From positions 201,867-265,866 of IMG/VR virus record IMGVR_UViG_3300029935_000001: 64,000 nucleotides of DNA, one strand, 5' to 3'. Every line of letters starts with the position of its first letter. Within the stretch, counting starts at the first letter, position 1. Position numbers and translations under genes: made by a program. The DNA is from a virus. Its lineage: Duplodnaviria > Heunggongvirae > Uroviricota > Caudoviricetes. The notes beneath the pieces were generated by a model. The model was given only the letters and a program-made list of their open reading frames with translations, did not search any database and had not been told where the DNA came from. Below are positions 5,257 to 54,982 of this stretch, piece by piece.

Positions 5257-5747
5257 GGATAGCTTGGATTGTAGGGCAAAGCGATCAGAATTACGATGTT
5301 GCTGCCCTCAAGGCAATCGGTCCTCTCTGGGGCACTTGGCAGTCGTGGCGGAAGTTTAAAACTGATAACGTAGTAGTAACAGACTTTAGCAAAGCAGTTG
5401 ACTTAACTGGCCGTGCCTTTCATAGTGTTTGTAACTTGTATCTCCCCGAAGACTTGTATCAAGCTGCTCAACGGCCAGCTGGCGTGCGCTTGTTTGCGCG
5501 TCCTGCAGGCGCTGGCGATTTAGCTGCATTAATGGGAGTAGTAGCAACTGTGGCCGACATTGTTCTTATTATTGGGTTGAGGCCGGGCTCACCTAACGAA
5601 GAACGTGAAGTGAAGTCAATTGTGCTAGCACACCCTAATATTCAATGGGTGAGCCTCGATGCCACTGAACCTTTTTTTGGTGGCAATGCTCCGCCAAACT
5701 GCCTAGTAGACACCACTGCTAATGTCTTGGCGATGCTTTCTGGTTGA
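5253..5747 (+). CDS. hypothetical protein
   Basis: The ATG overlaps the upstream stop (aaATGa); the gene's stop TGA lies inside the -35 TTGACT of the next promoter. Confidence 0.45.
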   Translation: MRIAWIVGQSDQNYDVAALKAIGPLWGTWQSWRKFKTDNVVVTDFSKAVDLTGRAFHSVCNLYLPEDLYQAAQRPAGVRLFARPAGAGDLAALMGVVATVADIVLIIGLRPGSPNEEREVKSIVLAHPNIQWVSLDATEPFFGGNAPPNCLVDTTANVLAMLSG

Positions 5748-5803
5748 CTAGCTGCTGCTACGGCGTTATAATAGCTACATACATTACTACTGCGGAGAAC
5801 ACA
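5744..5803 (+). promoter_or_regulatory. sigma70-type promoter (TTGACT-17-TATAAT) plus conserved leader variant
   Basis: -35 at 5744-5749, -10 at 5767-5772; leader agctacatacattactactgcggagaacacaATG. Confidence 0.6.
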
Positions 5804-6202
5804 ATGACTGCGCTCAACGAAACCGATCTTGTCACAGTTGTCGACCAAAGCTTGGGTTTCTTGCAGGCCCTTGCTGAGGTGTATGGCTCCGAGCGCGCAC
5901 AAGAAGCGTGGGCTAAGATAAGCGAGGCCCTCGGGCACGACGTTAGAGACGCAGTGTTCTTAGCTATGCTCGCCGGCGATAACGGTTCGGCTCGTGTGAC
6001 CTTCAAAATCACAAACCAAATCGTTAGCCATCGAGTGGCTGCTATTCGAGCGATTCGCGAGGCTGCATCGCTGGGCCTTAAAGAGGCCAAAGATCTTACG
6101 GATGCGGCAATGATGCGCGCCACTGTTGTGACGTGTAAAAATCGCCAATCAGCAAAAGGCCTGCGGCAAGCGTTGCGAGATCTTGGCATGGAGGCACAGT
6201 GA
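5804..6202 (+). CDS. protein with a ribosomal protein bL12 (L7/L12) C-terminal-domain-like region
   Basis: The C-terminal 70 aa read RVTFKITNQIVSHRVAAIRAIREAASLGLKEAKDL..., closely matching the bL12 CTD (EFDVIL...KIAVIKAVRxxTGLGLKEAKDL...); the N-terminal half is unrelated. Confidence 0.55.
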   Translation: MTALNETDLVTVVDQSLGFLQALAEVYGSERAQEAWAKISEALGHDVRDAVFLAMLAGDNGSARVTFKITNQIVSHRVAAIRAIREAASLGLKEAKDLTDAAMMRATVVTCKNRQSAKGLRQALRDLGMEAQ

Positions 6203-6705: not shown

Positions 6706-7119
6706 ATGCCCTGGATCACTAATGTGCCGCTGCGCTGGATCGCCGAAGGTCACTACCCTAACCCGGGCTCAAACAGTATGCTGATCCAAATCGTGGACCC
6801 GGCGATGGAGTTTCCTGTACCAGCGACGCCGTTTCGGGAGATTCATCAGTTTGAGTTTCTCGACCTCGAGGACTCCGACGACTTTGCTGAAGAGTTCAAG
6901 ATCACAGACGAGCAGGCTGCCGAGCTGGTCGCGCTCCTGCAGCACGCGCTCAACCAAGGCATGAACGTTATTGTCCACTGTGTCGCTGGAGTGTGTCGCA
7001 GCGGGGCAGTATGCGAGGTTGGCGTGATGATGGGGTTTGATGATGCTGGCGCGTACCGGGCTCCTAACCTCATGGTCAAACGTCTCATGATGAGGTGTCT
7101 TGGCTGGACCTACGATTAG
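6706..7119 (+). CDS. Cys-based protein phosphatase (dual-specificity/tyrosine phosphatase fold)
   Basis: CX5R P-loop VHCVAGVCRSGAV; SD AAAAAGGAAG upstream. Confidence 0.65.
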   Translation: MPWITNVPLRWIAEGHYPNPGSNSMLIQIVDPAMEFPVPATPFREIHQFEFLDLEDSDDFAEEFKITDEQAAELVALLQHALNQGMNVIVHCVAGVCRSGAVCEVGVMMGFDDAGAYRAPNLMVKRLMMRCLGWTYD

Positions 7120-7120
7120 G

Positions 7121-7179
7121 TTGACAGCACCTGCTCAGATCCGTATAATACGAACATAGACAACGCGCCGGAGAGCAAA
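7121..7179 (+). promoter_or_regulatory. sigma70-type promoter TTGACA-17-TATAAT
   Basis: -35 at 7121-7126, -10 at 7144-7149; leader cgccggagagcaaaATG. Confidence 0.6.
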
Positions 7180-7362
7180 ATGGGTTATCGAGTGTTTGAA
7201 GCCAACGACGGGTTCGGCGCGCGCAAAGGCCTCGAAGGCCCGTTCCGTTACCCCAGCGGTCGCGTTGTATATTACGATCCCAAAGAGGGCAAGTATTATG
7301 ACCCCAAAACGGACTGGTACTTAAGCCATCAAGAGGCGTTAGAACTTTATGCATTAACCTGA
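7180..7362 (+). CDS. hypothetical small protein
   Basis: Promoter-driven 60-aa ORF. Confidence 0.45.
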
Positions 7363-7928: not shown

Positions 7929-8035
7929 ATTATTATTTATCCGCGCACTGATTTTTACCTCTCAGACGACGAGGTTCGCGCACTCCAGGATTCCATCTAC
8001 AATGTGCTGCGCACGTAAAAAGATTTAGATTTAGG

Positions 8036-8097
8036 TTGCCCAGAGCAGCAGAATACGGTATAATAGCTACATACAGTAACGCAACGGAGCATACAAA
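8036..8097 (+). promoter_or_regulatory. conserved promoter-leader cassette (TTGCCC-17-TATAAT-AGCTACATACAGTAACGCAACGGAGCAtacaaa)
   Basis: Near-identical to more than 13 other copies. Confidence 0.7.
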
Positions 8098-9246: not shown

Positions 9247-9249
9247 CGG

Positions 9250-9306
9250 TTGACTTAAAACTCCCAAGTAGTTATAATAAGTTATTAAACAAATAAAGAG
9301 GCAAAT
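9250..9306 (+). promoter_or_regulatory. sigma70 promoter TTGACT-17-TATAAT with SD AAAGAGG (the original pnk promoter)
   Basis: -35 at 9250-9255, -10 at 9273-9278. Confidence 0.55.
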
Positions 9307-9395: not shown

Positions 9396-10388
9396 GTGAT
9401 ACCAACAAGAGCGCAATACTTTTTTACTGAGCGTGGATTTTTTAGAAAAAACGTCCTCAAAGAAGAAAAGTTCAGTCAACGCTATCCAGCTGTTTATGCA
9501 GAAATTAACAAAATTACTTCAACCTCGTTGCCGTGGCGAGAACGAGTGTATCTATATATACATGATGCACAAGAACCCCCACTCTGCCACTGCGGATGCG
9601 GAGAGCGGTGTGCTTTTTCGAACTGCCAAGACTCGAGTCGATTTACATATTTAAAGTTTTATTCAACTAAGTGCAAAGCTCGTGCTTATGGCGGTGTTGG
9701 AAATCCGTTTTTTGGTAAAAATCACTCAGATGAGACAAAAGAAGCAATCAGAGTTAAAAAGCAGGGCAAAACATATTCGCCCGAAGTAAACGCTAAAAAA
9801 GTGCGTCGCGGTGCTCAAAACGGAATGTACCAGCGTTGTAACTATGACGTTTGGCTCGAAAAATACGGCCCAGAAATTGCTTTACAAAAGCAGTTAGCAG
9901 CAAACGCTAAAAAAGTGCGTCGCGGTGCTCAAAACGGAATGTATGGTAAGTCGCCATCAAAAAAAGCTGGCAATTCTGTTAAGTGTTGGTACAAAGGTTA
10001 CTTTTGCCGCAGTTTATCCGAGCTAAGTTTTATAATAAACTACTGCGAGCGATTTAGGTTATTGTTTGAAACTGCCGAAACTACAAAATACAAAGTTGTT
10101 ATAGGTCCTAATAAAACGTACAGACCGGATTTTTTAGTAAACAACAAATTTATTGTTGAGATCAAACCAAAAGGGCTACAGAAGGCCCATGCTGACAAGT
10201 TTAGCATAGCCAAAGCAGAGTTTCTAAAGCAAGGGCTAACGTTTAAAGTCATTGACCCTATTAAAAAACTAAGTTATAATGACATTTTTGCGCTAATGCA
10301 AACGGGTGCCGTAGAAATAATGGCTGCTACGCATAGCAAAACTTATAACAACTTTATGAAAAGGTATCAAAAATGGGCAAAGCGGTAA
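9396..10388 (+). CDS. free-standing homing endonuclease (Zn-finger + NUMOD3 repeats + C-terminal PD-(D/E)xK-like nuclease)
   Basis: GTG start after AGGAGAG; CHCGCG zinc motif; NUMOD3-like GKNHSDETKEAIRVKKQGK; duplicated AKKVRRGAQNGMY module; C-terminal RPDF...VEIKPK motif; inserted between the pnk remnant and the intact pnk. Confidence 0.7.
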   Translation: MIPTRAQYFFTERGFFRKNVLKEEKFSQRYPAVYAEINKITSTSLPWRERVYLYIHDAQEPPLCHCGCGERCAFSNCQDSSRFTYLKFYSTKCKARAYGGVGNPFFGKNHSDETKEAIRVKKQGKTYSPEVNAKKVRRGAQNGMYQRCNYDVWLEKYGPEIALQKQLAANAKKVRRGAQNGMYGKSPSKKAGNSVKCWYKGYFCRSLSELSFIINYCERFRLLFETAETTKYKVVIGPNKTYRPDFLVNNKFIVEIKPKGLQKAHADKFSIAKAEFLKQGLTFKVIDPIKKLSYNDIFALMQTGAVEIMAATHSKTYNNFMKRYQKWAKR

Positions 10389-11933: not shown

Positions 11934-12737
11934 ATGCGCGTAGGGATCGTTGGGCATTGTGGCGTAGTTGGTTCTGCATACGCCCGCATTTATACAAATC
12001 GTGGAGCCAATGTCATTGGAATTGATCCAGCTGACCACAACTCTGCTAGCTATAGCGACCTCGATGGTGTTCGGTTAGTGTATGTTTGTGTGCCTAGCCC
12101 AACCACCGGGACTGGCTGGTGCGATACCTCGGTGCTAGAGCAAACGGTTATGCAGGTAGCTGCATTAAATCTGAAGGTGCCGATTGTGTGCAAGACTACT
12201 GCGCCGCCGTCGGTCTATGCGCAACTTCAAGCGCAGGCACCGGAAGTGATTCATGCACCTGAATTTTTGCGGCAAGACCACGCTCGCTACGATATTGAGC
12301 ATGCTGAGCTGTTAGTGTATGGGGGCGCAGCCCGAGTGACCCAACTGGTTGCGCGGCTCGAAGCTGAGTTTATTTACGATTCATTTCGTGCTCGCGTCGA
12401 AATGACTGACATCAAGACTGCTGCGCTATACAAATACCTGCGCAACGCGTACCTGGCTGCTAAGGTCACGTTCATGAATGATTTCTACAATCTAGCCACA
12501 GCCGCACAGGTAGATTGGAAGAACGTCCAGCACATCCTCGAGCGCGACGAGCACCTCGGTCCTACTCACAACGCAGTACCTGGCAAGGACGGGTTTGGCT
12601 GGGCCGGTCCGTGTTTTCCGAAAGACTTGACTGCGCTAGTTAGCTATGCTAACGTACATGCTGTAGACTTACCTGTGCTCGAAACCGTTCTCAAGCGCAA
12701 TCAACAACATCGTCTAAAAAACAAGGACACAAAATGA
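11934..12737 (+). CDS. UDP-glucose/GDP-mannose dehydrogenase-family protein (short form)
   Basis: Rossmann GIVGHCGVVGSA; APEFLRQDHARYD (compare NPEFLREG); catalytic-Cys motif GWAGPCFPKDL (compare GGSCFPKD); lacks the C-terminal UDP-binding domain. Confidence 0.55.
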   Translation: MRVGIVGHCGVVGSAYARIYTNRGANVIGIDPADHNSASYSDLDGVRLVYVCVPSPTTGTGWCDTSVLEQTVMQVAALNLKVPIVCKTTAPPSVYAQLQAQAPEVIHAPEFLRQDHARYDIEHAELLVYGGAARVTQLVARLEAEFIYDSFRARVEMTDIKTAALYKYLRNAYLAAKVTFMNDFYNLATAAQVDWKNVQHILERDEHLGPTHNAVPGKDGFGWAGPCFPKDLTALVSYANVHAVDLPVLETVLKRNQQHRLKNKDTK

Positions 12738-13285
12738 AAGTTCAAACTGAAGAAAGTATTGTTAACCAACTCGCTGATCAAATCGCGCGACTAGAAACTC
12801 TTATTGCTGAGGCCAAGGCAGTTCTTGGCATTAAAGCAGACACTCAAACTGCTGATCTATCCAGCACTTCGCCCATCATTTACCGTCGGCTTCGCTTGCA
12901 GACTGAACAAGGCACCCCCGACAACCTCAACTGTATTACGTTTGCGTTCCGCATCAACTACGCTGCCAACGTATTGCAGGCGGGCTGGAGTATTGCTAAC
13001 AACGAAAACGTGGATCTCGAGCGTGGTCGTGCGTTGGCTGCTGAACGCCTTGACAAGGATCCACTTGAAGTAGAGTACAAGGCTGGTCGCAGCCTAGTCA
13101 ACAACGTATATGCTCACTTTTTTGGTGCGGGGCCGCTGGCTCACCTGCTTAACGGTTCGTTTAACAACAATCTATACAACGCGCTAAAGCGCAAGCTTCG
13201 CGGCATGCAGTCACAAAAAACTGTGCACATCGAAGACGCGTTCGAACAGGTAGTTCAAACTATGAATCGTAGAAAAAAAGGTTGA
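12734..13285 (+). CDS. hypothetical protein
   Basis: ATGA overlap with the previous gene; ends ...RRKKG-stop, with the TGA inside the next -35 box. Confidence 0.45.
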   Translation: MKVQTEESIVNQLADQIARLETLIAEAKAVLGIKADTQTADLSSTSPIIYRRLRLQTEQGTPDNLNCITFAFRINYAANVLQAGWSIANNENVDLERGRALAAERLDKDPLEVEYKAGRSLVNNVYAHFFGAGPLAHLLNGSFNNNLYNALKRKLRGMQSQKTVHIEDAFEQVVQTMNRRKKG

Positions 13286-13341
13286 CCAGAGCAGCCACGT
13301 TGCGTATAATACGTACATAAGATAACGCAACGGAGCAAGCA
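13282..13341 (+). promoter_or_regulatory. conserved promoter-leader cassette
   Basis: aaaaaaGGTTGACC-17-TATAAT-acgtacataagataACGCAACGGAGCAAGCAATG. Confidence 0.7.
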
Positions 13342-13503
13342 ATGCGCCAAGTTACTAAGAAAGAGTTTTACGAAGTATGCAAGAGCAAACCCCGTGCTGC
13401 GTCGGTCGTTGGCGGCGTTGAACTGCGTTATTACAGCCGAGCCAAACAACTAATCGGCAAGGCGTGCCGCATCAACAAAAAAATTACATATTGGGTGTTC
13501 TAA
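13342..13503 (+). CDS. small basic protein (53 aa)
   Basis: ATG at the canonical position after the conserved leader. Confidence 0.5.
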   Translation: MRQVTKKEFYEVCKSKPRAASVVGGVELRYYSRAKQLIGKACRINKKITYWVF

Positions 13504-13920: not shown

Positions 13921-13984
13921 GGTTGCTCGCCTGGGCAGCCTTTGCTATAATGTTTTTGTTAAGACACTACTAAGGAACCGCACA
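13921..13984 (+). promoter_or_regulatory. sigma70 promoter TTGCTC-17-TATAAT
   Basis: aaaaaaaGGTTGCTC...TATAAT at 13944-13949; drives the RNA ligase gene. Confidence 0.55.
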
Positions 13985-18646: not shown

Positions 18647-18670
18647 AAAAGCCCCGCAAGGGGCTTTTTT
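18647..18670. terminator. bidirectional intrinsic terminator aaaaGCCCCgcaaGGGGCtttttt
   Basis: Perfect GC stem flanked by an A-tract and a T-tract. Confidence 0.75.
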
Positions 18671-18674
18671 GTGG

Positions 18675-18731
18675 TTGCTCTTCCTGCATCAATACCGTAT
18701 AATACGGCATAGACACCACTGAGCGAGCACT
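18675..18731 (+). promoter_or_regulatory. sigma70 promoter TTGCTC-16-TATAAT
   Basis: -10 at 18697-18702. Confidence 0.5.
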
Positions 18732-18878: not shown

Positions 18879-19835
18879 ATGGGATCATGGAACAAGACGT
18901 GTGGTTTGTCAAACTTGCACATCTACTCTGGCACGCCAGTCTATGTGTTTGTAATGGAACAAAACCGAGACCGCTACGACCGTTGTTACACGACTGCGCT
19001 GTATAAGCCTTGCCTGCTCGCGTTCAAAAGTGTCTACAACGACTACGGCGGCGGCGAAAACTCTAGCGGACCCGGTCTCCCATTCATCATGGCTGCGCTC
19101 AAAGAGCATCTACACGAAATGCCATTGGGCAAAAACAAGTACCACGACATTGCTGTGACCAAAGCTGCGTTTGACGAGGAACTGTTTTTCCGCGCGGTTC
19201 ACGAAGGGCGACTCAAGCTGGACCTACACTGCAGCGAACCCGTTGACGTTGAGTTTGTAATGTTCCGCCAAGACGTAGTAGATCAAATCCTGCGTACTTA
19301 CGTAGCCGAACGTTATGTTGGCGCAGGCCAGGGCACCGGCGGCTGGAACAACGCCTATGTTCACTACTCGTGGGCTGACGTAGCAACTGACGTGCCTGCG
19401 CTAGTAGACGCCATTGCTGCAAAGGTCAACGCCGTTGACAGCAGGTTTGCTGGTATGCCTGCGCAGTGGCGGCCTGGGACCAGCCTTGATCAAATCAGTG
19501 ATCGCTGCGGTAGCAACAAGGCAGCATGGTATGTGCCTGTTAACGCCCACCAATACGCTAGCTTTTTGCGGGTTGATAGGCTTGTAATTGACCTAGTTGA
19601 AGCCAAGGACAGCAGCACTGCCGTTGCTGTGCTCACAGAGTACCTACGTGGCGCCTTTCTAGACGAGTTTATGATGGCCACGCGCCGGATCTGGGTCCCA
19701 GGCTGTCACGAAGGCAGTCAGGGAGCTGGCTATAAAGAGTACCTGGTCCTAGCCGACACTGTTCGCGATTGCTTGCGCCGCGAGATTGAGGAAAACGAAG
19801 AAGAAAACGACGACACCGTTGACCTTTCTGAATAA
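18879..19835 (+). CDS. hypothetical protein (318 aa, acidic C-terminus)
   Basis: SD-like AAGGAATACC ahead of the ATG. Confidence 0.5.
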   Translation: MGSWNKTCGLSNLHIYSGTPVYVFVMEQNRDRYDRCYTTALYKPCLLAFKSVYNDYGGGENSSGPGLPFIMAALKEHLHEMPLGKNKYHDIAVTKAAFDEELFFRAVHEGRLKLDLHCSEPVDVEFVMFRQDVVDQILRTYVAERYVGAGQGTGGWNNAYVHYSWADVATDVPALVDAIAAKVNAVDSRFAGMPAQWRPGTSLDQISDRCGSNKAAWYVPVNAHQYASFLRVDRLVIDLVEAKDSSTAVAVLTEYLRGAFLDEFMMATRRIWVPGCHEGSQGAGYKEYLVLADTVRDCLRREIEENEEENDDTVDLSE

Positions 19836-19878
19836 TTCCGGTATAATAGCTACATAACGTAACGCAACGGAGCAAGCA
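19819..19878 (+). promoter_or_regulatory. conserved promoter-leader cassette
   Basis: TTGACC-17-TATAAT-AGCTACATAACGTAACGCAACGGAGCAAGCAATG; the -35 lies inside the end of the upstream gene. Confidence 0.7.
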
Positions 19879-20236: not shown

Positions 20237-20386
20237 ATGGGCAAGTTTATTCTTGGCTTTATCCTGGGGCTGGTTGTTGCTACCATCGGCCTCGACGGAG
20301 TGTATAACCTCACTACCCGCGCAGTTGACGCATCCAAAACGGTGATCGTCGAAAACGCCAAGCCCATCGAAGGAGCCGCAAAATGA
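20237..20386 (+). CDS. small membrane protein (49 aa)
   Basis: One TM helix (FILGFILGLVVATIGL); ATGA overlap into the next gene. Confidence 0.4.
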   Translation: MGKFILGFILGLVVATIGLDGVYNLTTRAVDASKTVIVENAKPIEGAAK

Positions 20387-20646
20387 AAGTCATTCCGGTA
20401 ATTGAAGTGAGCACTTGGGACGGCGGTGATCGCCATAACTTTGCGTTTTACATTGACAATACCAATCGGTGCGGCGTAAGCCACGCGCGTGCTTACCAGG
20501 ACAAACACCCTCACGACATCGTTCGTGAAACCGAGATTGTTATTTTTGAGGGCCAGGTCGATTACAACGAGTTCCGTTCAGGCAAGGTGCGCGAGCGCGC
20601 GCTGGCCAAGCTGACAGCCGAAGAACGAAAAGCGCTCGGCTTCTAA
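20383..20646 (+). CDS. hypothetical protein
   Basis: Translationally coupled ORF. Confidence 0.45.
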   Translation: MKVIPVIEVSTWDGGDRHNFAFYIDNTNRCGVSHARAYQDKHPHDIVRETEIVIFEGQVDYNEFRSGKVRERALAKLTAEERKALGF

Positions 20647-20655
20647 GGAATAGCC

Positions 20656-21066
20656 ATGACAAAGCCTAACGCGTTTGTGTTTTACTTTGCTTTCGTGCAC
20701 GATGGGCTGCCCGGCGTGACCATGGGCTTTGTTGTGCCCGACGCCGAAGCAGTCTTTAAAAAGTTTTACGCATCTGACTTCGAAGATATGGTCGAAAAGC
20801 TTTACGCCGACGGACCATTCGACGACCTCGAATCGGCGTTTGGGGTTCACGACTGGAGAACATCGCCGAGCCAAGAAGTCGACGCAGTCGGGTTCAACAC
20901 TTACGAAGTTGAACCCAGTCAAATCGCAACGCTGATGGAACGGTGGCGCGAGGTATTTACAACCAACGTTGCCCCCGGGCCGGCTGTTGAGATCCCTGAG
21001 ATTGTCGCGTCAGGCTCGGATCACAGCATCTACAAATATATCACCGAACGCTACGAAAAAGGTTGA
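20656..21066 (+). CDS. hypothetical protein
   Basis: SD AAGGAATAG ahead of the ATG; ends ...YEKG-stop inside the next -35 box. Confidence 0.45.
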   Translation: MTKPNAFVFYFAFVHDGLPGVTMGFVVPDAEAVFKKFYASDFEDMVEKLYADGPFDDLESAFGVHDWRTSPSQEVDAVGFNTYEVEPSQIATLMERWREVFTTNVAPGPAVEIPEIVASGSDHSIYKYITERYEKG

Positions 21067-21124
21067 CTGCTAAGCTCTGTCTGCATATAATACGTATATA
21101 AAATAATGCAACGGAGCAGCCGAC
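21063..21124 (+). promoter_or_regulatory. conserved promoter-leader cassette (variant)
   Basis: TTGACT-17-TATAAT-acgtatataaaataATGCAACGGAGCAgccgacATG. Confidence 0.65.
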
Positions 21125-21424
21125 ATGATGAGCATGAAGACCCTCGAGCGGTACCATCAACTTCAAGGACTGATGGTCGGCTATAGCACCGAACCAGAAA
21201 AAAAGCAAACTCTCACGGAGATGCAACGGCTGTTCCAGCACCTCGATGTTGTTTCCTGTGTTGAGTATGCTCGCGCGTGCAAAACCGAACTAGTGCTAGT
21301 TGATTGCAAGCTCGAGGGCGAAGACATGTTCCAGGTCGCGCACAGCAAAACTAAATTCTGCTTCTTTATCGGCACTCGCACCGCTTGTGAAGAATTTCTC
21401 TCCAAGGTGTTTAAAAAAGGTTGA
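21125..21424 (+). CDS. hypothetical protein
   Basis: Ends ...FKKG-stop inside the next -35 box. Confidence 0.45.
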   Translation: MMSMKTLERYHQLQGLMVGYSTEPEKKQTLTEMQRLFQHLDVVSCVEYARACKTELVLVDCKLEGEDMFQVAHSKTKFCFFIGTRTACEEFLSKVFKKG

Positions 21425-21482
21425 CCGCCTGCCTGCTTTCTGGTATAATAGCTACATACAGTAACGCAACGGAGCAAAGATC
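21421..21482 (+). promoter_or_regulatory. conserved promoter-leader cassette
   Basis: TTGACC-17-TATAAT-AGCTACATACAGTAACGCAACGGAGCAaagatcATG. Confidence 0.7.
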
Positions 21483-26363: not shown

Positions 26364-27215
26364 ATGCCTAAGGTAGCAGTAGTAAGTGATGTTCACCTCG
26401 AGTTTGGGTCTGGAACCATCGAAAACAAAGAAGCTGCAGATATTTTGCTCCTCGCCGGCGATATTTGTGTAGCCGAAGACCTTAAGCGACACCCGGTTGA
26501 CGCTACAGTAGTAGACAAACGAACAAGCCCGCGCCTAGTTAGTGCAATGGCTTATCGCGAGTTTTTCCGCGAGTGTGCTAAACAGTTTGAGCATGTAGTT
26601 TATGTGCTAGGCAACCACGAGCACTATGACGGCAACTACGACGAGTCTTATTCAGTAATTAAGGCAGCACTGGCTGAGATTAGCCCCCGGTTTCACGTGC
26701 TCGAGCAAGAAGCAGTCACGCTTGATGGTGTAGTATTTGTTGGGAGTACCTTATGGACTGATATGTTCAAAGGCGATTCGTTAGCGGTGTATCACGCCCG
26801 CGAGAGAATGAGTGATTACAACTGTGTTCGGGTGGCAAAGAAAAGCTATCGCAAGTTGCAACCTGCTGACACCATGCATGACCACTGGCGCAGTGTTCAG
26901 TTCATCAAGACCGTAGCCGAAAACAATCGAGCTAGTGACACACCTAAGTCGATTGTGGTCGTATCGCACCACGCGCCTGCGTCACTGTCGCTGAATCCTG
27001 CTTATCGCGGTGACTTGCTCAATGCGGCGTATTACTCGGACTTGTCGGATCTGATCCTAGACAACCCAGAGATTCGCCTTTGGATTCATGGTCACCTGCA
27101 CAACGAATCTGATTACATGGTAGGAGATCAGACTCGGGTGGTCTGTAACCCACGTGGATACTACGGCGAGCAGCATGCTGATCGCGAGATTCGCTTAGTT
27201 TATGTTGACATTTAA
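26364..27215 (+). CDS. calcineurin-like metallophosphoesterase
   Basis: All conserved motifs present: DVHLE, GDIC, GNHEHYDG, HHAP, GHLHN. Confidence 0.8.
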   Translation: MPKVAVVSDVHLEFGSGTIENKEAADILLLAGDICVAEDLKRHPVDATVVDKRTSPRLVSAMAYREFFRECAKQFEHVVYVLGNHEHYDGNYDESYSVIKAALAEISPRFHVLEQEAVTLDGVVFVGSTLWTDMFKGDSLAVYHARERMSDYNCVRVAKKSYRKLQPADTMHDHWRSVQFIKTVAENNRASDTPKSIVVVSHHAPASLSLNPAYRGDLLNAAYYSDLSDLILDNPEIRLWIHGHLHNESDYMVGDQTRVVCNPRGYYGEQHADREIRLVYVDI

Positions 27216-27262
27216 CTCGGTGCCTGTTATAATCTAATCATCAACTACAAGCAGCGACGAAC
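27205..27262 (+). promoter_or_regulatory. sigma70 promoter TTGACA-17-TATAAT
   Basis: -35 at 27205-27210 overlaps the end of the phosphoesterase gene; -10 at 27228-27233. Confidence 0.55.
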
Positions 27263-30002: not shown

Positions 30003-30401
30003 ATGTTGCAACATATCTGGTTGCTACTAACGTTTCGACACCGCGGACAAGGGCTTTCCCGTACTCCGTTGGCGTTTGCTGCTGTAATAGTAGGTATTGC
30101 TGTAGCGTTGGATGCGTTCCGGTTTGGGGTAGCAAGCGCGGAACCAATGGTCACTGCAGCAGCATGGACCGCGTGGGCGATCGCCCAAGCACTTGGTGCA
30201 ACCTTGCTCTGGGCTATTTCTCGAGGAACGGAACATCGGCCCATGTTCGCAGGATGGTATATGATTGCTATAGCGTTTGACGTTGTTGCAATCACGTTGT
30301 TTGCAGCTGGAGTGCCTTACCCGGGGTTACTTGTGCTGTATGAAGTAGCTGCTGCAATAACCTTTGCAACCCGCCTGCGGGTCTCGGTTGACCAAACATA
30401 A
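30003..30401 (+). CDS. integral membrane protein (4 TM)
   Basis: Hydrophobic throughout (AAVIVGIAVALDAF..., WAIAQALGATLLWAI..., MIAIAFDVVAITLFAAGV...). Confidence 0.5.
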   Translation: MLQHIWLLLTFRHRGQGLSRTPLAFAAVIVGIAVALDAFRFGVASAEPMVTAAAWTAWAIAQALGATLLWAISRGTEHRPMFAGWYMIAIAFDVVAITLFAAGVPYPGLLVLYEVAAAITFATRLRVSVDQT

Positions 30402-30450
30402 CTATTCTGTTACAATGTTGTTTACTAATTAATAGTTTTGAGAGCTAACT
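30388..30450 (+). promoter_or_regulatory. sigma70 promoter TTGACC-17-TACAAT
   Basis: The -35 overlaps the stop of the upstream gene. Confidence 0.45.
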
Positions 30451-31456: not shown

Positions 31457-31491
31457 GGAACGATGTTGGCTAGTAACCCCACCAAAAAAGC

Positions 31492-31552
31492 TTGACCCTG
31501 TTGGCCTAAACCAGTATAATACAACTTCCAAAACTAAGCAAGGAGAACTCAA
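31492..31552 (+). promoter_or_regulatory. sigma70 promoter aaaaaagcTTGACC-17-TATAAT with SD AAGGAGAA
   Basis: -10 at 31515-31520. Confidence 0.6.
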
Positions 31553-32467: not shown

Positions 32468-32477
32468 ATAACGCAAC

Positions 32478-33348: not shown

Positions 33349-33574
33349 ATACGATCGCGAAGATTTTACTTACCTGCTCGAGCTCACGGTCGAAGGCATG
33401 ACCGATCGGGGCTACGAGTGGGTAAACGATCAAATGGCGGTAAACCCGGAGCGAATGTGCTGGTTAATAGCCCTTGCTGCCGAAATGGTGGATTTGGCTG
33501 CTATTGACAAAAAAACAGCCAACACTCTGGATTTTCCTGAAATTATCAAAATACTCAAAGAGATTTTAAAGTGA
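33341..33574 (+). CDS. hypothetical protein
   Basis: Overlapping start. Confidence 0.4.
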   Translation: MNEYDREDFTYLLELTVEGMTDRGYEWVNDQMAVNPERMCWLIALAAEMVDLAAIDKKTANTLDFPEIIKILKEILK

Positions 33575-33849
33575 CACTACTTTACGTGGCTGAATCAACC
33601 GCCTGGCCAGCCTCCTTGGTGCCACTAATGTACGAACCAGCGCAACGCAAGCTTGTCGCTGTTGGGAGTAACATGGTATATACAGAAGTGAGTTTTGCAC
33701 ATCCCCCTGAGCTCCTCGCTGTAGTAACCTGGGCAAAACAAAAAATGCTCGAAGAAAGCGAGATCAATCACCTCGTACAATCTAACCCTGCGATTCGTGA
33801 CGCAAAAACTGCCCTTGATGTATTATTGGCGCTGAACAAATCCAGTTGA
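33571..33849 (+). CDS. hypothetical protein
   Basis: GTGA overlap. Confidence 0.4.
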   Translation: MTLLYVAESTAWPASLVPLMYEPAQRKLVAVGSNMVYTEVSFAHPPELLAVVTWAKQKMLEESEINHLVQSNPAIRDAKTALDVLLALNKSS

Positions 33850-33896
33850 CATCTGGACATAGTGTGCTATAATAGCTTATACCAAGGAGAAGCAGC
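33846..33896 (+). promoter_or_regulatory. sigma70 promoter TTGACA-16-TATAAT, leader with SD AAGGAGAA
   Basis: -10 at 33868-33873. Confidence 0.55.
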
Positions 33897-34794: not shown

Positions 34795-35124
34795 ATGAGC
34801 GACCAACCAGAACTATTCACACTCGACGACAGCAGCCAGGATTGGTGGCTTAACGGCGAACTACATCGCGATGATGGCCCTGCTGTAATCGATAGCGACG
34901 GAACCGAGTGGTGGTTCCGCAATGGGCGATTACATCGCGAAGACGGGCCTGCTGTAATTCGGACCGATGGTACCCAGGAGTGGTATCGCAACGGCCAACT
35001 ACATCGCGAAGATGGTCCTGCTGTTATCTATGCAAACGATGGCACCCAGGAGTGGTTTCTTGATGGCAACCGAGTAGACCCCATTGTTCACTTAATGCTG
35101 CGTTATGAGCAAGAAACAGGTTGA
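34795..35124 (+). CDS. MORN-variant repeat protein, paralog 1 (3.5 repeats)
   Basis: 23-aa repeats DGTxEWWxRNGxLHREDGPAVI; conserved tail VDPIVHLMLRYEQETG. Confidence 0.65.
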   Translation: MSDQPELFTLDDSSQDWWLNGELHRDDGPAVIDSDGTEWWFRNGRLHREDGPAVIRTDGTQEWYRNGQLHREDGPAVIYANDGTQEWFLDGNRVDPIVHLMLRYEQETG

Positions 35125-35178
35125 CCGTTGCGTTAATTCCGGTATAATATAAATATACAGATAATCCAGGAGTTTCGC
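35121..35178 (+). promoter_or_regulatory. promoter unit duplicated with the MORN genes
   Basis: cagGTTGACCgttgcgttaattccggTATAAT; the -35 overlaps the ...ETG-stop of the upstream gene. Confidence 0.6.
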
Positions 35179-35505
35179 ATGAACAACAAACCAACCCTAC
35201 AAAAACGCACAAACGGCACCCAGCAGTGGGTCCTCAATGGGCAACTACATCGCGAAGATGGGCCTGCTGTTATTCAAGCCGATGGTACCAGGATGTGGTA
35301 TCTTAATGGCCAGCGACATCGCGAAGATGGCCCTGCTGTGATCGATAGCGACGGAACCGAGTGGTGGTTCCGTAATGGCGAACTACATCGCGAAGATGGC
35401 CCTGCTGTTGTTCAAACAGACGGAACCAAAGAATGGTGGATCAACGGCGAAGAAGTAGACTTCGTGACTCACGCAGTGCTGCAACACAAAAATAAAAATC
35501 GTTGA
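35179..35505 (+). CDS. MORN-variant repeat protein, paralog 2
   Basis: Same repeat type; divergent tail VDFVTHAVLQHKNKNR. Confidence 0.65.
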   Translation: MNNKPTLQKRTNGTQQWVLNGQLHREDGPAVIQADGTRMWYLNGQRHREDGPAVIDSDGTEWWFRNGELHREDGPAVVQTDGTKEWWINGEEVDFVTHAVLQHKNKNR

Positions 35506-35561
35506 CCATCCGGGCTTGTTTTGGTATAATAACTATATCAACAACGCATTAGGTACGTGTT
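35502..35561 (+). promoter_or_regulatory. promoter TTGACC-17-TATAAT
   Basis: -10 at 35525-35530. Confidence 0.55.
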
Positions 35562-36029
35562 ATGAGCGGCAAACCAGAACTACACAAGCTCACCGACGGC
35601 ACCCAAAAGTGGTATCGCAACGGCGAACTACATCGCGAAGATGGGCCTGCTGTTATTCGGGCAGATGGCACTCGGTGGTGGTACCTCAATGGTCAAATTC
35701 ACAGAGAAGATGGTCCTGCGTGTATTTGCTCCAATGGCACCCAGGAGTGGTGGATCAACGGCCGACTACATCGAGAAGACGGGCCTGCATATATCGATGC
35801 AGACAGCACCCAGGAGTGGCACCTCACTGGCCTGCGACATCGCGAAGATGGGCCTGCATACATTGGTGCAGATGGCTCTCAGTGGTGGTACCGCAATGGC
35901 CGACTACATCGCAAAGACGGGCCTGCTGTTATCTATGCAAACGATGGCACCCAGGAGTGGTACCTCAATGGCAACCGAGTAGATCCTATCGCTCACTTAG
36001 TGCTGCGTTATGAGCAAGAAACGAGTTGA
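35562..36029 (+). CDS. MORN-variant repeat protein, paralog 3 (6 repeats)
   Basis: Six consecutive W-x-x-N-G-x-x-H-R-E/K-D-G-P-A repeats; tail VDPIAHLVLRYEQETS. Confidence 0.65.
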   Translation: MSGKPELHKLTDGTQKWYRNGELHREDGPAVIRADGTRWWYLNGQIHREDGPACICSNGTQEWWINGRLHREDGPAYIDADSTQEWHLTGLRHREDGPAYIGADGSQWWYRNGRLHRKDGPAVIYANDGTQEWYLNGNRVDPIAHLVLRYEQETS

Positions 36030-36086
36030 CCACCTGGGCTCGTTTCGGTGTAATAACTACATACAACAACACATTGGGTATGTGCA
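36027..36086 (+). promoter_or_regulatory. promoter TTGACC-17-TGTAAT
   Basis: The -35 overlaps the ...ETS-stop. Confidence 0.5.
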
Positions 36087-36482
36087 ATGAGCAGTAAGAC
36101 AGAAATGCGCGAATTCGCGGATGGCGGCCGGATGTGGCTACTTAATAGCCAACCACACCGCACGGACGGACCTGCTGTTATTCAAGCAGATGGAACCCAA
36201 AAGTGGTTCAGGAATGGCCGACTACATCGCGAAGACGGACCTGCTTTTATTCATGCAGATGGAACCCAAAAGTGGTATCGCAACGGCGATCTACATCGCG
36301 AAGATGGACCTGCTGTTACTTGGATTGATGGAACACAAGCCTGGTATCGAAATAGCCAACTACATCGCGCGGATGGACCTGCATATATTGATGCAAACGG
36401 CACCCAAATGTGGTACCTCAATGGCAAACGAGTAGATCCCATCACTCACTTAGTGCTGCGTTACGAGCAAGAAACAGGTTGA
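36087..36482 (+). CDS. MORN-variant repeat protein, paralog 4 (5 repeats)
   Basis: Same family; tail VDPITHLVLRYEQETG. Confidence 0.65.
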   Translation: MSSKTEMREFADGGRMWLLNSQPHRTDGPAVIQADGTQKWFRNGRLHREDGPAFIHADGTQKWYRNGDLHREDGPAVTWIDGTQAWYRNSQLHRADGPAYIDANGTQMWYLNGKRVDPITHLVLRYEQETG

Positions 36483-36524
36483 CCGTTGCGTTTAATTCTG
36501 GTATAATAGCATTGGGTATATGCC
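36479..36524 (+). promoter_or_regulatory. promoter TTGACC-17-TATAAT
   Basis: Nearly identical to the unit at 36848. Confidence 0.55.
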
Positions 36525-36851
36525 ATGAGCAACCGACTAAAACTACGTAAACTCGCTAATGGCACCCAGATGTGGGCCCTTGGCGGCCGACTACATCGCG
36601 AAGACGGGCCTGCTGTTATTCACGCCGACGGCGACCAGATGTGGTATCGCAATGGCCAACTACATCGAGAAGATGGGCCTGCAGTTGTCTACTCTGATGG
36701 ACAACAAGAGTGGTGGATCAACGGCCAACTACATCGCGAAGATGGACCTGCTGTTGTTTGGCCCAATGGCACCCGAATGTGGTGGCTTAATGGCAAACAT
36801 GTAGACCCCATCACTCACCTAATGCTGCGTTATGAGCAAGAAACAGGTTGA
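36525..36851 (+). CDS. MORN-variant repeat protein, paralog 5 (4 repeats)
   Basis: Same family; tail VDPITHLMLRYEQETG. Confidence 0.65.
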   Translation: MSNRLKLRKLANGTQMWALGGRLHREDGPAVIHADGDQMWYRNGQLHREDGPAVVYSDGQQEWWINGQLHREDGPAVVWPNGTRMWWLNGKHVDPITHLMLRYEQETG

Positions 36852-36909
36852 CCGTTGCGTTTAATTCTGGTATAATAACTACATACGGTAATTGAACGGA
36901 CAAAAAGAA
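36848..36909 (+). promoter_or_regulatory. promoter TTGACC-17-TATAAT plus leader variant (actacatacggtaattgAACGGAcaaaaagaaATG)
   Basis: -10 at 36871-36876. Confidence 0.6.
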
Positions 36910-43923: not shown

Positions 43924-44525
43924 ATGTACGAATCCAGCAGTCATTTGGCTTTTTAGCCGGAGTCTTTGATTCATCCGAGGGACTACTTATGAATGAGTAT
44001 TCCTTGACGCTAGATCTTATTACCAACACTGTTGACTCGATTGAACAAAACATTGCGTTCGACCGGATAACTCACTTTATTGAGAATGTGGTGTCGAATG
44101 CGGTCTTTGTGCGCGACACAGACGTTGAGGTTTGTAAAAATTTGCACGCTGCTGGAGTTCGAGTAATCACTCTACCCGAAGAGCCGTACGATCAAATTGT
44201 TGGGCTGGCATTGTATGCCAAGCTAAGTGCAATAATGGAGCAGCGAATGTTTATCACCGACTGCGAAATTTCCAGCAGCGAAGGCCGTCATGTTGTGTAT
44301 ATGCACGCTGCTGAAGAATCTATCGGACCATTCGAGCTGCCAGGCTGGTGGAATGACCCCAGCAGGTCGTACTGCGATAAAAAGTTGTTTGCCTGGGATA
44401 AAAAAATAATCAAACTTAGTAAATCCGACGACTCGTGGCGGAACTTCAATTTAGATTGGGAAGCTGCAACAGAACCCGCCGATTCGAATGTGGTGGTAGT
44501 AAAATTCGACTATGAAAAAGAGTAG
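43920..44525 (+). CDS. hypothetical protein (201 aa)
   Basis: ATGA coupling. Confidence 0.45.
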   Translation: MNVRIQQSFGFLAGVFDSSEGLLMNEYSLTLDLITNTVDSIEQNIAFDRITHFIENVVSNAVFVRDTDVEVCKNLHAAGVRVITLPEEPYDQIVGLALYAKLSAIMEQRMFITDCEISSSEGRHVVYMHAAEESIGPFELPGWWNDPSRSYCDKKLFAWDKKIIKLSKSDDSWRNFNLDWEAATEPADSNVVVVKFDYEKE

Positions 44526-45015
44526 TGTTGGCGAAAATATTTACTCCGAAGACGAGTTAATTGACTCGTTAATGCGCGACCCTGCTGCGCAACTGTCAGG
44601 CGCTACTGCCGACGTTACACTGCCGACAAATTTAGCCGAAGTGTTAGACGATGTGCCGCATTTTGTTCAACCGACTAAGTTACTGGATGTAGCGGCGTTT
44701 GATCAAAAAAATCAACAACAGTGGCTAATGCCAGACGAGTACAAAGAGTTTGATGTTGCCAAATATGTATTAGAGTTGTGTACCACTGACGCCGAGTTGC
44801 AGCGAGTAGGAAATGAATTATTACTTTACCAAGAGAGGGATTTGTTTAACTTGCTGCGGTATTTAAAGTTTTTAGTAGACACAATGCAACAGCACAATAT
44901 TATTTACGGCGTTGGTCGTGGATCGAGTGTTGCGTCGTATGTGTTGTACTTATTAAAAGTACATAGAATTAATTCTATGTACTATGATTTAGACATTGGT
45001 GAGTTTTTACGCTAA
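44512..45015 (+). CDS. hypothetical protein (167 aa)
   Basis: Overlapping start. Confidence 0.45.
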   Translation: MKKSSVGENIYSEDELIDSLMRDPAAQLSGATADVTLPTNLAEVLDDVPHFVQPTKLLDVAAFDQKNQQQWLMPDEYKEFDVAKYVLELCTTDAELQRVGNELLLYQERDLFNLLRYLKFLVDTMQQHNIIYGVGRGSSVASYVLYLLKVHRINSMYYDLDIGEFLR

Positions 45016-48599: not shown

Positions 48600-48876
48600 A
48601 TGTGACCCCATACAAGTCCACCTAACGGCTGAATTTGACTACGACATATTAACTAAACTGGTTAGCGTGGCTGAGTTTTACGACCTGATTACCGCCGTGA
48701 CCTCTTTTGCTGTCCAGAAACTACCAGGGCAGTTGCCCGATAATGAGTTGTTTCGAGACCACTTTGGATTTTGGTTTGACATGACCAAATCGGCGGTAAA
48801 GATCAACGACCAGCAAAAATATCTTCTTTTTGTCTTGCAATCAGGGATGACGGTTGACCAGTTTGTGGCTGAGTAG
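48541..48876 (+). CDS. hypothetical protein (start uncertain)
   Basis: ORF overlapping the PRTase 3' end by 59 nt; the next promoter's -35 lies inside its 3' end. Confidence 0.35.
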   Translation: MWPIMRLQKHSAAPSSRQNKCDPIQVHLTAEFDYDILTKLVSVAEFYDLITAVTSFAVQKLPGQLPDNELFRDHFGFWFDMTKSAVKINDQQKYLLFVLQSGMTVDQFVAE

Positions 48877-48913
48877 TATAATACTTGTTGTCTACTAACT
48901 AAGCGGTGGTTAT
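48854..48913 (+). promoter_or_regulatory. sigma70 promoter TTGACC-17-TATAAT
   Basis: -10 at 48877-48882. Confidence 0.55.
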
Positions 48914-49237
48914 ATGAATGTCACTCTCGATGCCAGGCGCAATGCCTACGACCATCATGATCGCGAGCAGGTTCGAAAGCAGCTATTGTTTCACGCACAC
49001 TATCCTTATGTAATAGTTGTAGACGGTGGCACGCCTGCGCGGACAGTGCACGGCACGCCAGGCCGCGACGAGCGCAAGGCATGGTGTTACTCAGCTAAAC
49101 TGCACGGTGCATGGATGACCGTCGACACGTACCGCAGCCGAGATTATTATTTTGCCGTTGAGCAAGACGCTCTGCTGTTTGTTATGACCTTTGGTGGCAA
49201 CTACGTCAAGCAAGAAGATACCAATGACAACCCCTGA
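48914..49237 (+). CDS. hypothetical protein
   Basis: Promoter-driven ORF. Confidence 0.45.
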   Translation: MNVTLDARRNAYDHHDREQVRKQLLFHAHYPYVIVVDGGTPARTVHGTPGRDERKAWCYSAKLHGAWMTVDTYRSRDYYFAVEQDALLFVMTFGGNYVKQEDTNDNP

Positions 49238-49424
49238 CGATACCTATCGCGCCCTTGCCGGGCACCCGCTTCCGGTCCGCAGAATCTGGTGCCGAGTAGG
49301 CATTCATATGTGGACACCATGGTCTGAGTCGCGATCGGTAAAGTGGTCGTCTTACTACGTCCAAGAATCGACATGCGTGTTCTGCAACCGACTCCGCGTG
49401 CGAAGAATCAAGGGTACCGGTTGA
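49191..49424 (+). CDS. hypothetical protein (Trp/Cys-rich)
   Basis: Overlapping ORF. Confidence 0.35.
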   Translation: MVATTSSKKIPMTTPDDTYRALAGHPLPVRRIWCRVGIHMWTPWSESRSVKWSSYYVQESTCVFCNRLRVRRIKGTG

Positions 49425-49475
49425 CCTTTCAGAATGATTCTAGTATAATAGCTACATAACGAACGGAGCAAATAA
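49421..49475 (+). promoter_or_regulatory. conserved promoter-leader cassette (short-leader variant)
   Basis: TTGACC-17-TATAAT-AGCTACATAACGAACGGAGCAAATAAATG. Confidence 0.7.
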
Positions 49476-50710: not shown

Positions 50711-50749
50711 CACTACAATGTAGCTTTATATAGTAAAGCGAACAAACTT

Positions 50750-54905: not shown

Positions 54906-54982
54906 TGGATATTTTGTTACGAGTATCTTCGCAGGCTGGCTAATCACCGCGGTTATCGTAGCAGTGTATCAGCTCTCTTAGG

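Follow-up and report, generated by a model that had tools for sequence, protein, structure and literature searches.

A repeated promoter-plus-leader cassette, probably a standardised unit of early gene expression, in an uncultivated jumbo phage related to PA5oct

What do a promoter and its short untranslated leader do when they recur, nearly unchanged, in front of one unrelated gene after another? The question is raised by a stretch of 64,000 nucleotides (nt) from a virus of the class Caudoviricetes (IMG/VR record IMGVR_UViG_3300029935_000001, positions 201,867 to 265,866; the whole stretch is hereafter called the window). A sequence-only reading of this DNA had proposed that a single cassette of promoter and 5' untranslated region is reused at least 14 times, that its -35 box doubles as the stop codon of the upstream gene, that its leader is a shared post-transcriptional control element and that the copies are modular and recombinogenic. 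The analysis described here indicates that the repeats are probably standardised, recombination-prone cassettes for the expression of early genes in an uncultivated jumbo phage related to PA5oct, with promoter activity, start site and early timing as predictions.

Copy number and anatomy of the cassette

The pattern GGTTGACC-N17-TATAAT, with up to two mismatches, had 27 matches in the window, all on the + strand (0.14 expected). Most of these promoters matched the hexamers at 11-12 of 12 positions with a spacer of 17 bp, and the total of near-consensus sigma70-type promoters was about 31, again all on the + strand. Sixteen copies share the near-identical sequence TATAAT-AGCTAC-A(+1)TAnnnTAACGCAACGGAGCAA-N3-6-ATG in the site table and alignment, and four more (35121, 35502, 36026 and 36479; copies are named after a position in their -35 box), all within a tandem array of paralogous genes, are decayed, so that the proposed reuse at 14 or more sites was borne out. 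About 11 promoters of the same -35 and -10 type are followed by unrelated leaders. The 13-nt core of the leader, TAACGCAACGGAG, had 17 matches with up to two mismatches (1.6 expected), and the full 32-nt leader as originally described had three with up to three mismatches (0 expected). A hidden Markov model built from the 16 aligned copies gave 22 hits in the window, none of them on the minus strand. Every position given in the sequence-only reading was recovered (8036, 13282, 19819, 21063, 21421, 49421, 52506, 54983, 56792, 58538, 59979, 62286 and 63247, as well as 5744 and 36848), and the copy at 7121 was additional. The cassettes, with the ribosome-binding site abbreviated RBS and open reading frame ORF, are as follows.

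5742-5803, + strand: cassette with the variant leader ATACATTACTACTGCGGAG, before ATG 5804 (protein with an L7/L12 C-terminal domain); the -35 TGA (5745-5747) is the stop of the upstream ORF
7119-7179, + strand: cassette with the outlier leader ATAGACAACGCGCCGGAG, before ATG 7180 (conserved 60-amino-acid protein); perfect TTGACA-N17-TATAAT promoter, preceded by the upstream stop TAG 7117
8034-8097, + strand: full cassette, -35 box TTGCCC, before ATG 8098
13280-13341, + strand: cassette before ATG 13342; TGA 13283-13285 is the stop of gene 12734-13285 (...RRKKG*); spacer CGTTGCG pairs with leader CGCAACG
19817-19878, + strand: full cassette with consensus leader, before ATG 19879; upstream stop in the spacer (TAA 19833)
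21061-21124, + strand: cassette before ATG 21125; TGA 21064-21066 is the stop of gene 20656-21066; spacer complementary to the leader
21419-21482, + strand: full cassette before ATG 21483; TGA is the stop of gene 21125-21424
35119-35178, + strand: decayed cassette in the five-paralog array; TGA is the stop of the upstream paralog; spacer contains the reverse complement of TAACGCAACGG
35500-35561, + strand: decayed cassette in the paralog array; TGA is the stop of the upstream paralog
36024-36086, + strand: decayed cassette in the paralog array, -10 box TGTAAT; TGA is the stop of the upstream paralog
36477-36524, + strand: cassette with shortened leader in the paralog array; TGA is the stop of the upstream paralog
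36846-36909, + strand: cassette with leader ATACGGTAATTGAACGGAC, before ATG 36910; TGA is the stop of the last paralog; spacer and leader pair
49419-49475, + strand: cassette with a 6-nt leader deletion, before ATG 49476; TGA is the stop of ORF 49191-49424
52504-52566, + strand: full cassette of the 'AAGA' subtype (shared with 13282), before ATG 52567
54981-55038, + strand: cassette with a 5-nt leader deletion, before ATG 55039
56790-56853, + strand: full cassette before ATG 56854; upstream flank AAACTCGCAGAAAAAGG identical to 55675-55692
58536-58599, + strand: full cassette, perfect TTGACA/TATAAT, before ATG 58600
59977-60040, + strand: full cassette, -35 box TTGATC, RBS GGAT, before ATG 60041; TGA is the stop of ORF 59614-59982
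62284-62346, + strand: full cassette, -10 box TAAAAT, before ATG 62347
63245-63308, + strand: full cassette before ATG 63309; orthologs in locus L011 and in L009/L018/L027

The consensus reads (GAAAAA)GGTTGACC, 17 variable nt ending in (c/t)gG, TATAAT, AGCTAC, A(+1)TA, NNN, TAACGCAACGGAGCAA, 3-6 nt and ATG. The cassette thus spans about 64 nt, with strong conservation at the -35 and -10 boxes, the start region and the leader, and weak conservation in the spacer. Some copies carry an upstream A-tract, GAAAAAGG, resembling an UP element. The flank motif GAAAAAGGTTGACC, with up to two mismatches, had ten matches (0.47 expected), nine of which were promoter flanks on the + strand, and other copies have ordinary coding sequence at this place. 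As had been noted earlier, the antisense of the cassette yields a recurrent CVTLCSYYT peptide; the antisense frame reads LRCVTLCSYYT.

The proteins behind the cassettes had no function assigned by Pfam and only 'unknown function' in PHROGs. No cassettes occur at 37-48.8 kb, the region of the MazG, chaperonin-like and clamp-loader genes. Sub-types are common to distant loci (13282 and 52506; 19819 and 49421), and copies therefore do spread.

Predicted start, composition and structure of the leader

Following the 7-nt rule and the analogy with the T5 promoter P_N25, transcription would start at the A of C-A-T. The start region of P_N25 is TATAAT-AGATTC-A+1, a sequence that was confirmed in T5-like genomes. 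With the start at A(+1), the leader would be only 25-27 nt long. The near-invariance of the 28-nt transcribed leader described previously was upheld, and its length was not, since the first six nt (AGCTAC) precede the predicted start. The leader consists of 47 % A and 10 % T, and has a mean minimum free energy (MFE) of -1.1 kcal/mol, compared with -2.6 kcal/mol for the 27 nt upstream of other genes in the window. RNAalifold, proposed earlier as a check on structure and covariation, found 0 pairs among the 16 copies, and no Rfam match reached the gathering score anywhere in the window. A structured cis-regulatory RNA (riboswitch, structured leader or thermometer) is rejected on the grounds of the MFE of about -1 kcal/mol, the 0 consensus pairs and the lack of an Rfam match.

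The RBS of the cassette copies is a bare GGAG with C on both sides, 6-9 nt before the ATG. GGAG was found in 15 of the 28 promoter-linked genes, including nearly all cassette copies; the RBS of non-cassette genes is mixed (AAGGA, AGGAG, GAGG and similar) and never in the AACGGAGCAA context. The leader motif TAACGCAACGGAG occurs in the window only behind a promoter, apart from one near-match at chance level at 32469.

In five of 19 cassettes (13282, 21063, 35121, 36848 and 63247) the spacer is significantly complementary to the RBS part of the leader (pooled z -2.9). The stem at 63247 joins spacer GCTTGCTCTG to leader ACGGAGCAAGC (-23 kcal/mol, z -4.5), and such pairing was also present in the orthologous cassettes of loci L020 (-27 kcal/mol) and L011. 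These stems enclose the -10 box and would form in read-through transcripts only, where they would hide the RBS.

Recurrent units of promoter and stem-loop, the promoter-early stem-loops (PeSLs), have been described in the T4-like phages RB49/phi1, PST/T4 and nt-1/KVP40 (Arbiol et al. 2010, PMC2839356; Comeau et al. 2014, PMC4122927). In the window, 90-nt regions around the cassettes folded with a mean z of -0.3, with three of 28 below -2, and terminator-like sites were not enriched. A general stem-loop of the PeSL type is rejected on these two results together with the 0 pairs from RNAalifold. The only true PeSL-like unit of terminator plus promoter in the window lies at 18647-18703.

The stop codon in the -35 box

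At 15 sites (5744, 13282, 21063, 21421, 33846, 35121, 35502, 36026, 36479, 36848, 49421, 53710, 59979, 62286 and 63247) an open frame of 40 codons or more closes with the TGA of TTGAC, and by a stricter count this TGA is the upstream stop in 11 of 23 cases, which agrees with the at least nine reported before. This overlap (11-15 of 23-27 promoters) is just modestly above the one-third expected from a random frame. Other upstream genes stop within the spacer or at most 15 nt before the -35 box. In this tightly packed genome the upstream gene extends into the cassette, about half of such genes ending at the TGA of TTGAC, and where this happens the A-tract encodes a ...K/E-K-G tail.

The consensus holds TGA and TAATAG in one frame and TAA at +2 and +7 in the others, and a supply of stops in all three frames was considered. 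These stops look incidental, because upstream genes end only at the -35 TGA, in the spacer or shortly before the cassette.

The gene at 55203-55697, previously listed among the cases of overlap, was found to end in a remnant and not in a full cassette.

55681-55709, + strand: -35-only remnant, CGCAGAAAAAGG-TTGA-CCTTTTTCTGCG, forming a perfect 13-bp hairpin (-21.9 kcal/mol, z -3.9) at the end of the HD-domain gene 55203-55697; the TGA in the loop is the stop, and no -10 box follows

A second copy of the 17 nt preceding the -35 box of 56792 lies at 55675-55692, so that two unrelated genes end in the same ...KLAEKG* tail. As a further instance of shared gene ends, a 48-nt repeat (77 % identical; 20599-20646 and 57169-57216, + strand) forms the 3' ends of two otherwise unrelated genes and encodes the common C-terminal peptide ALAKLTA....

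Independent copies and the paralog array

An all-against-all comparison of the + strand ORFs revealed a single paralog family, consisting of five tandem genes at 34795-36851 that are 45-73 % identical in amino acid sequence. Their best match is DUF6745; the label of MORN genes that they had received did not hold, as the MORN_2 matches are below threshold (E 0.015-0.3). Outside this array the similarity between copies ends at the cassette edges (about 64 nt) and the flanking genes are unrelated ORFans. Recent segmental duplication, which had been named as an outcome that would speak against independent conservation, is thereby refuted for all copies outside the array at 34.8-36.9 kb. Within the array the promoter boxes are kept and the leader has decayed, which shows what becomes of a leader that merely diverges along with its gene. 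Three of the decayed leaders end, just before the ATG, in a small hairpin with GGG in its loop (e.g. CACAT-tgggt-ATGTG).

The least probable account of the repeats, that they arose by recent duplication or belong to a selfish mobile repeat that plays no part in expression, is largely refuted: the spreading sub-types and the cassettes between members of the tandem array speak for it, but elsewhere the flanking genes are dissimilar up to the cassette edges, all copies are oriented like the genes and keep a fixed distance to the start codon that follows, the conserved positions are the -35 and -10 boxes, start site and RBS while the spacer is free, and the cassette persists in phages whose proteins are at most 50 % identical.

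Occurrence in related phages

The genes of the window are nearly all small and on the + strand, with a guanine-plus-cytosine (GC) content of about 48 %. An 8-kb piece of the window had no match at the DNA level, whether near-identical or distant, among 50,697 phage records, from which the cassette itself and its leader are also absent. Recognisable proteins include ClpX, RNA ligase, UvdE, an SPFH protein and an RFC-like clamp loader. The clamp loader has 55 % amino acid identity with that of the Pseudomonas jumbo phage PA5oct and 45 % with those of Atu_ph07 and Phosso, on account of which the source is assigned to an uncultivated jumbo phage of the broad PA5oct group. An identical clamp-loader protein is present in a few SRA assemblies (SRR1144626 and SRR34955047/8), one of them on a contig of 0.2-1 Mb.

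A pattern scan recovered the same cassette in three IMG/VR loci and 28 metagenome loci (L numbers) belonging to at least three lineages with 39-55 % GC. The scan required TAACGCAACGGAG, so the set is biased, and the informative parts are the positions that were not required and the neighbouring cassettes that did not match the pattern. The groups recovered were:

Lineage A: GC about 39-43 %; own conserved spacer CAATAATACCCAAACTGC
Lineage B: GC about 47-55 %; 65-87 % DNA identity to parts of the window
Lineage C: GC about 41-55 %; TTTAC at the -35 box
L025: single locus, GC 42 %

Lineage A is linked to the window by only two small proteins with 44-50 % identity, and ACATA-N3-TAACGCAACGGAG is kept nonetheless. 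At orthologous sites the -10 box plus leader is 85-97 % identical, compared with 35-94 % for spacers and 47-97 % for flanks. In lineage A (L001-L003, L005, L010, L012-L014, L017, L030 and L031) the 17-nt spacer CAATAATACCCAAACTGC is nearly invariant among copies, unlike in the window, which reflects either very recent copying or a spacer site particular to this lineage.

At the exact-match level, 185,579 bacterial and archaeal species genomes contained neither the cassette nor its leader by itself; at this level there is thus no mimicry of a host gene, no prophage copy and no spacer of a CRISPR (clustered regularly interspaced short palindromic repeats) array. In 65 relative loci from IMG/VR, found through the clamp loader, no cassette leader lay near the replication module, variable regions not being covered by these loci.

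The looser pattern GGTTGAC-N18-TATAAT-NNN-TACATA was present in at least 119 IMG/VR contigs, some of them 280-353 kb long, where about one would be expected by chance. Among the listed matches of this wider family, 79 % have an RBS and start codon within 40 nt after TACATA, and the leader has a median length of 25 nt (interquartile range 23-27) with 51 % A and 14 % T, against a background of 30 % each. The leader sequences of the wider family are specific to lineages (e.g. GACAGCAACAAACAGGAG, CAGACACAAAAGGAGC and CAAACAAACATTGGAGCG), and orthologs of the 60-amino-acid protein encoded at 7180 stand behind differing lineage-specific leaders or have no promoter. To judge from these sequences, length, composition and the GGAG(C) site are general features, and the exact sequence is uniform per lineage and different between lineages. 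Such a pattern points to a generic cis-acting optimum kept uniform within a genome by copying or recombination, and less to one universal operator.

The leader of the 7121-7180 copy, ATAGACAACGCGCCGGAG, is unlike the main type of the window and resembles the GACAGCAAC-type leaders of other lineages (L136, L165, L172, L197 and L204), as if this copy had escaped homogenisation. In a further set of IMG/VR loci (L039, L065, L067-L070, L072, L079, L086, L089, L090, L092 and L095), TTGAC-N17-TATAAT is followed by an ATG after exactly 6 nt, and some of these ATGs open a gene beginning M(E/D/N)HY(Q/K)TLGV (J-domain-like). The spacing suggests leaderless mRNAs in this phage group.

Recombination at cassettes

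The relatives contain junctions that coincide with the cassette. In L009 the upstream gene (81 %) and promoter (100 %) are as in L027, and the leader (100 %) and downstream gene are as in L007; since the promoter side matches one locus and the leader side the other, the crossover is placed inside the common TATAAT-AGCTACATA core. In L019 the ortholog of gene 58600 is preceded by TAA-CATAACGCAATGGAGCAACAA-ATG, a leader half-cassette with no promoter, and is followed by a full cassette and a gene absent from the window. In L015 the ortholog of 20383-20646 stands immediately before the cassette and gene of 21421, the two genes that separate them in the window being absent, and L020 lacks gene 51752-52351, which lies directly upstream of the 52506 cassette. 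The recombinant, the half-cassette and the insertions or deletions of genes at cassette edges accord with the modular, recombinogenic character suggested at the outset, and they are the signatures described for PeSL-mediated shuffling.

Interpretation and alternatives

The interpretation as standardised early-gene cassettes draws on the anatomy of the sequence, the absence of RNA structure, the conservation across phages and the recombinant junctions in relatives. Each unit would consist of an A-tract in some copies, a near-consensus promoter for the host sigma70 polymerase (GGTTGACC-N17-(g)GTATAAT), a 6-nt discriminator ending in C-A(+1)-T, an unstructured A-rich leader of 25-27 nt and a GGAG RBS 6-9 nt before the ATG. 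With initiation by the host RNA polymerase at every cassette, each small ORFan gene would have a strong promoter to itself and a uniform start of translation, free of structure and independent of the neighbouring coding sequence; a benefit of the leader to translation is, like promoter activity, start position and early timing, a prediction. Because the core from the -10 box to the RBS is nearly identical at many loci, it forms a portable stretch of homology. Recombination in this core would insert, delete and swap gene modules between related phages and would also keep the copies within a genome alike.

Several points weigh against this interpretation. About 20 leader positions are exactly kept across lineages of different GC, more than an unstructured A-rich leader needs, and this exact conservation would allow for a sequence-specific partner. 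From copy to copy the spacers in the window are entirely different, so gene conversion of whole cassettes is not the sole homogenising force and selection on the leader is implied. Promoter use, start site and timing are all predicted for this phage. The recombinant junctions, moreover, were seen in the short metagenomic contigs of relatives and not in the window, and assembly chimeras at repeats are possible there.

A sequence-specific partner is the substance of the alternative in which the near-invariant leader ATAnnnTAACGCAACGGAGCAA (including TAACGCAAC) is bound by a dedicated phage or host protein or a small RNA that switches all cassette genes post-transcriptionally. The block TACATA-N3-TAACGCAACGGAGCAA with its free N3 looks like a two-part binding site, is kept over lineages with 39-55 % GC, remains 85-97 % identical at orthologous sites where spacers are randomised, and is never found in the window without the promoter. 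The leader, however, has no RNA structure, no covariation and no Rfam match, and antisense copies are absent from the window except in some promoter spacers. In distant relatives the leader keeps its length and composition but not its sequence, even where the gene behind it is an ortholog. No candidate regulator came to light: no RegA-like ORF lies beside the clamp loader or among the proteins scanned, and the cassette-driven proteins have no annotated function. We therefore regard the dedicated factor as doubtful, and the shared post-transcriptional control element of the sequence-only reading, which met with the same lack of structure, covariation and Rfam matches and the same change of sequence in distant relatives, did not find support. 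A narrower version, in which the 20-nt TAACGCAACGGAGCAA, invariant in at least three lineages, is the operator of a clade-specific switch, appears rather doubtful; a protein or small RNA binding the 5' end of the transcript, or the DNA, would turn the early ORFans off, and the anti-leaders in the spacers would likewise silence read-through.

It is improbable that the transcript start is instead a signal to RNA polymerase at the DNA level, either as an initially transcribed sequence optimised for escape from a near-consensus promoter or as T(+2)A(+3)nnnT(+7), a -10-like element for sigma70 pausing near +17 as at lambda PR' and E. coli 'G1d'. The canonical -10 box, 6-nt spacer and C-A-T (YRY) start are reported features of sigma70-dependent promoter-proximal pausing (PMC7876045), and a TAnnnT close to the transcript start is a further point of resemblance to lambda PR' and 'G1d'. 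Among the 16 window copies, T+2 and A+3 never change, 14 have T+7, and +4 to +6 vary freely; and the early promoters of T5-like phages share TATAAT-N6-ATAAATT, with the same TAnnnT at +2 to +7. The -10-like hexamer nevertheless lies 13 bp downstream of the -10 box, as against the 11 bp reported (PMC7876045), an offset of about 2 bp; T at +7 is found in only 30 % of the listed wider-family promoters; T+7 is also the first base of the TAACG block and hence not independent evidence; and the conservation of +8 to +24 is left unexplained.

Very improbable is a RegB-like phage endoribonuclease that would recognise the GGAG and, as in T4, inactivate early mRNAs through cleavage of their RBS. Cassette genes use GGAG almost exclusively whereas other genes use AAGGA, GAGG, AGGAG and similar, and like a RegB/S1 site this GGAG is embedded in A-rich, single-stranded RNA (PMC1702504). 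Sites of T4 RegB/S1 follow, however, the consensus GGAGRAYARAA, in which C is hardly ever found at positions 5-6 and never at 9 (PMC1702504), and the cassette GGAGCAAGCAA has C at positions 5 and 9; the RNase site suggested earlier thus does not fit that cleavage consensus. No RegB-like ORF was found among about 55 window proteins scanned with Pfam and PHROGs, a scan that was not exhaustive and covered part of the genome.

Comparison with known systems

Like the PeSLs, the cassettes are repeated between genes and join a near-consensus sigma70 early promoter to a Shine-Dalgarno sequence and a start codon, and some copies may also have the A/T-rich stretch upstream of the promoter; they cluster between small ORFan genes of variable regions, and core modules lack them. 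Both show gene insertion, deletion and replacement between relatives with crossovers between the -10 box and the ATG, and both have 'half' (degraded) cassettes, seen here in short contigs of relatives. In T4-like phages, recombination of neighbouring PeSLs is also reported to excise mini-circles. The spacer-leader stems enclosing the -10 box, present in a subset of the window cassettes, correspond to one sub-class of PeSL. In contrast to PeSLs, the defining stem-loop terminator is not general in the window cassettes, the upstream stop is often inside the -35 box and not upstream of it, the leader from the -10 box to the RBS is far more uniform, and the phage is a PA5oct-related jumbo phage and not a T4-like myovirus.

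The early promoters of T5-like phages (P_N25 and relatives) also occur in many copies in which promoter, discriminator, start and a conserved A-rich leader run into the RBS. The T5-like Salmonella phage beppo has about 20 early promoters per 50 kb, with the consensus ttaaaaatt-TTGCTT-N17-TATAAT-atattC-ATAAATTtGAGAGaGGAG-ATG. It shares with the window the TATAAT, a discriminator of 6 nt with C as its last base, A(+1)TA and a leader length of about 25 nt, but the sequences are not homologous save for TATAAT-N6-ATA, as the -35 box is TTGCTT and not GGTTGACC and the leader is another. In the T5 copies the A/T-rich upstream region lies outside coding sequence, and no overlap of stop and -35 box was seen in the T5-like sequence examined.

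PA5oct depends on host RNA polymerase and has 32 TTGAC/TATAATA promoters (Lood et al. 2020, PMC7318152). It is the closest cultured relative by clamp loader and shares the host-type sigma70 promoters, but its first 50 kb contain few such promoters and no shared leader. Two PA5oct promoters (L032, 36575 and 37972) have common leaders, CATAAT-AATTACAACGCAAC and AATTACAACACAAC, which are faintly like the ACGCAAC block of the window, maybe by chance.

Other features of the window

Promoters of the same type with other leaders, including the PeSL-like unit, are:

9248-9278, + strand: promoter GGTTGACT-N17-TATAAT, unrelated leader
13921-13951, + strand: weaker promoter AAAAAAGGTTGCTC...TATAAT, before the RNA ligase gene at 13985
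18647-18703, + strand: intrinsic terminator hairpin (18647-18668), directly followed by promoter GGTTGCTC-N17-TATAAT
27203-27233, + strand: promoter of the same type, unrelated leader, before ATG 27263
30386-30416, + strand: promoter GGTTGACC...TACAAT, unrelated leader, before ATG 30451
31490-31520, + strand: promoter AAAAAAGCTTGACC...TATAAT, unrelated leader, before the SPFH/Band-7 gene at 31553
33844-33873, + strand: promoter with a 16-nt spacer; TGA 33847-33849 is the stop of ORF 33571-33849; short leader, ATG 33897
48852-48882, + strand: promoter GGTTGACC-N17-TATAAT, unrelated leader, before ATG 48914
50689-50719, + strand: promoter GGTTGACA...TACAAT, unrelated leader, before ATG 50750
53708-53737, + strand: promoter GGTTGACT-N16-TATAAT; TGA 53711-53713 closes an upstream open frame; unrelated leader

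The cassette-driven gene at 5804-6202 (+ strand) encodes a 132-amino-acid protein with the C-terminal domain of ribosomal protein L7/L12 (Pfam E 5.5e-08), by this match a phage-encoded ribosomal-protein-like gene. ORF 9396-10388, with matches to NUMOD3 and a TnsA-like endonuclease, is likely a homing-endonuclease-type gene; it contains a 45-nt direct repeat, 98 % identical, at 9785-9829 and 9899-9943 (+ strand, 114 nt apart). The largest ORF, 39037-41811 (+ strand, 924 amino acids), has no Pfam match and is 26 % identical over about 40 % of its length to S8-family peptidases of Atu_ph07 and Phosso. The ORF at 44512-45015 (+ strand, 167 amino acids) matches just part of the NTPase domain of DNA polymerase III alpha and is perhaps a polymerase gene in split or fragmented form; near it lie MazG (42185), a Cpn10-like ORF (45471) and a SLOG/YAcAr ORF (47449). 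No tRNA or tmRNA was found within the window.

Significance

Plug-in cassettes are already known from T4-like and T5-like phages; what is new is the compact form, with overlap of -35 box and stop codon and a standardised leader, in jumbo phages. The design of the plug-in expression cassette thereby extends to a large group of uncultivated jumbo phages related to PA5oct. For genome annotation the cassettes supply dozens of predicted start sites and gene starts, and in metagenomic contigs of jumbo phages they offer a simple DNA motif by which early or accessory gene regions could be located. The compact promoter-plus-leader part is also a candidate for synthetic biology. As the leader is identical within a lineage and different between lineages, the choice between a generic translation enhancer and a lineage-specific control site becomes an easily testable question. 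The natural recombinants, in turn, locate sites at which gene modules are exchanged and give insight into how the accessory regions of jumbo phages are shuffled.

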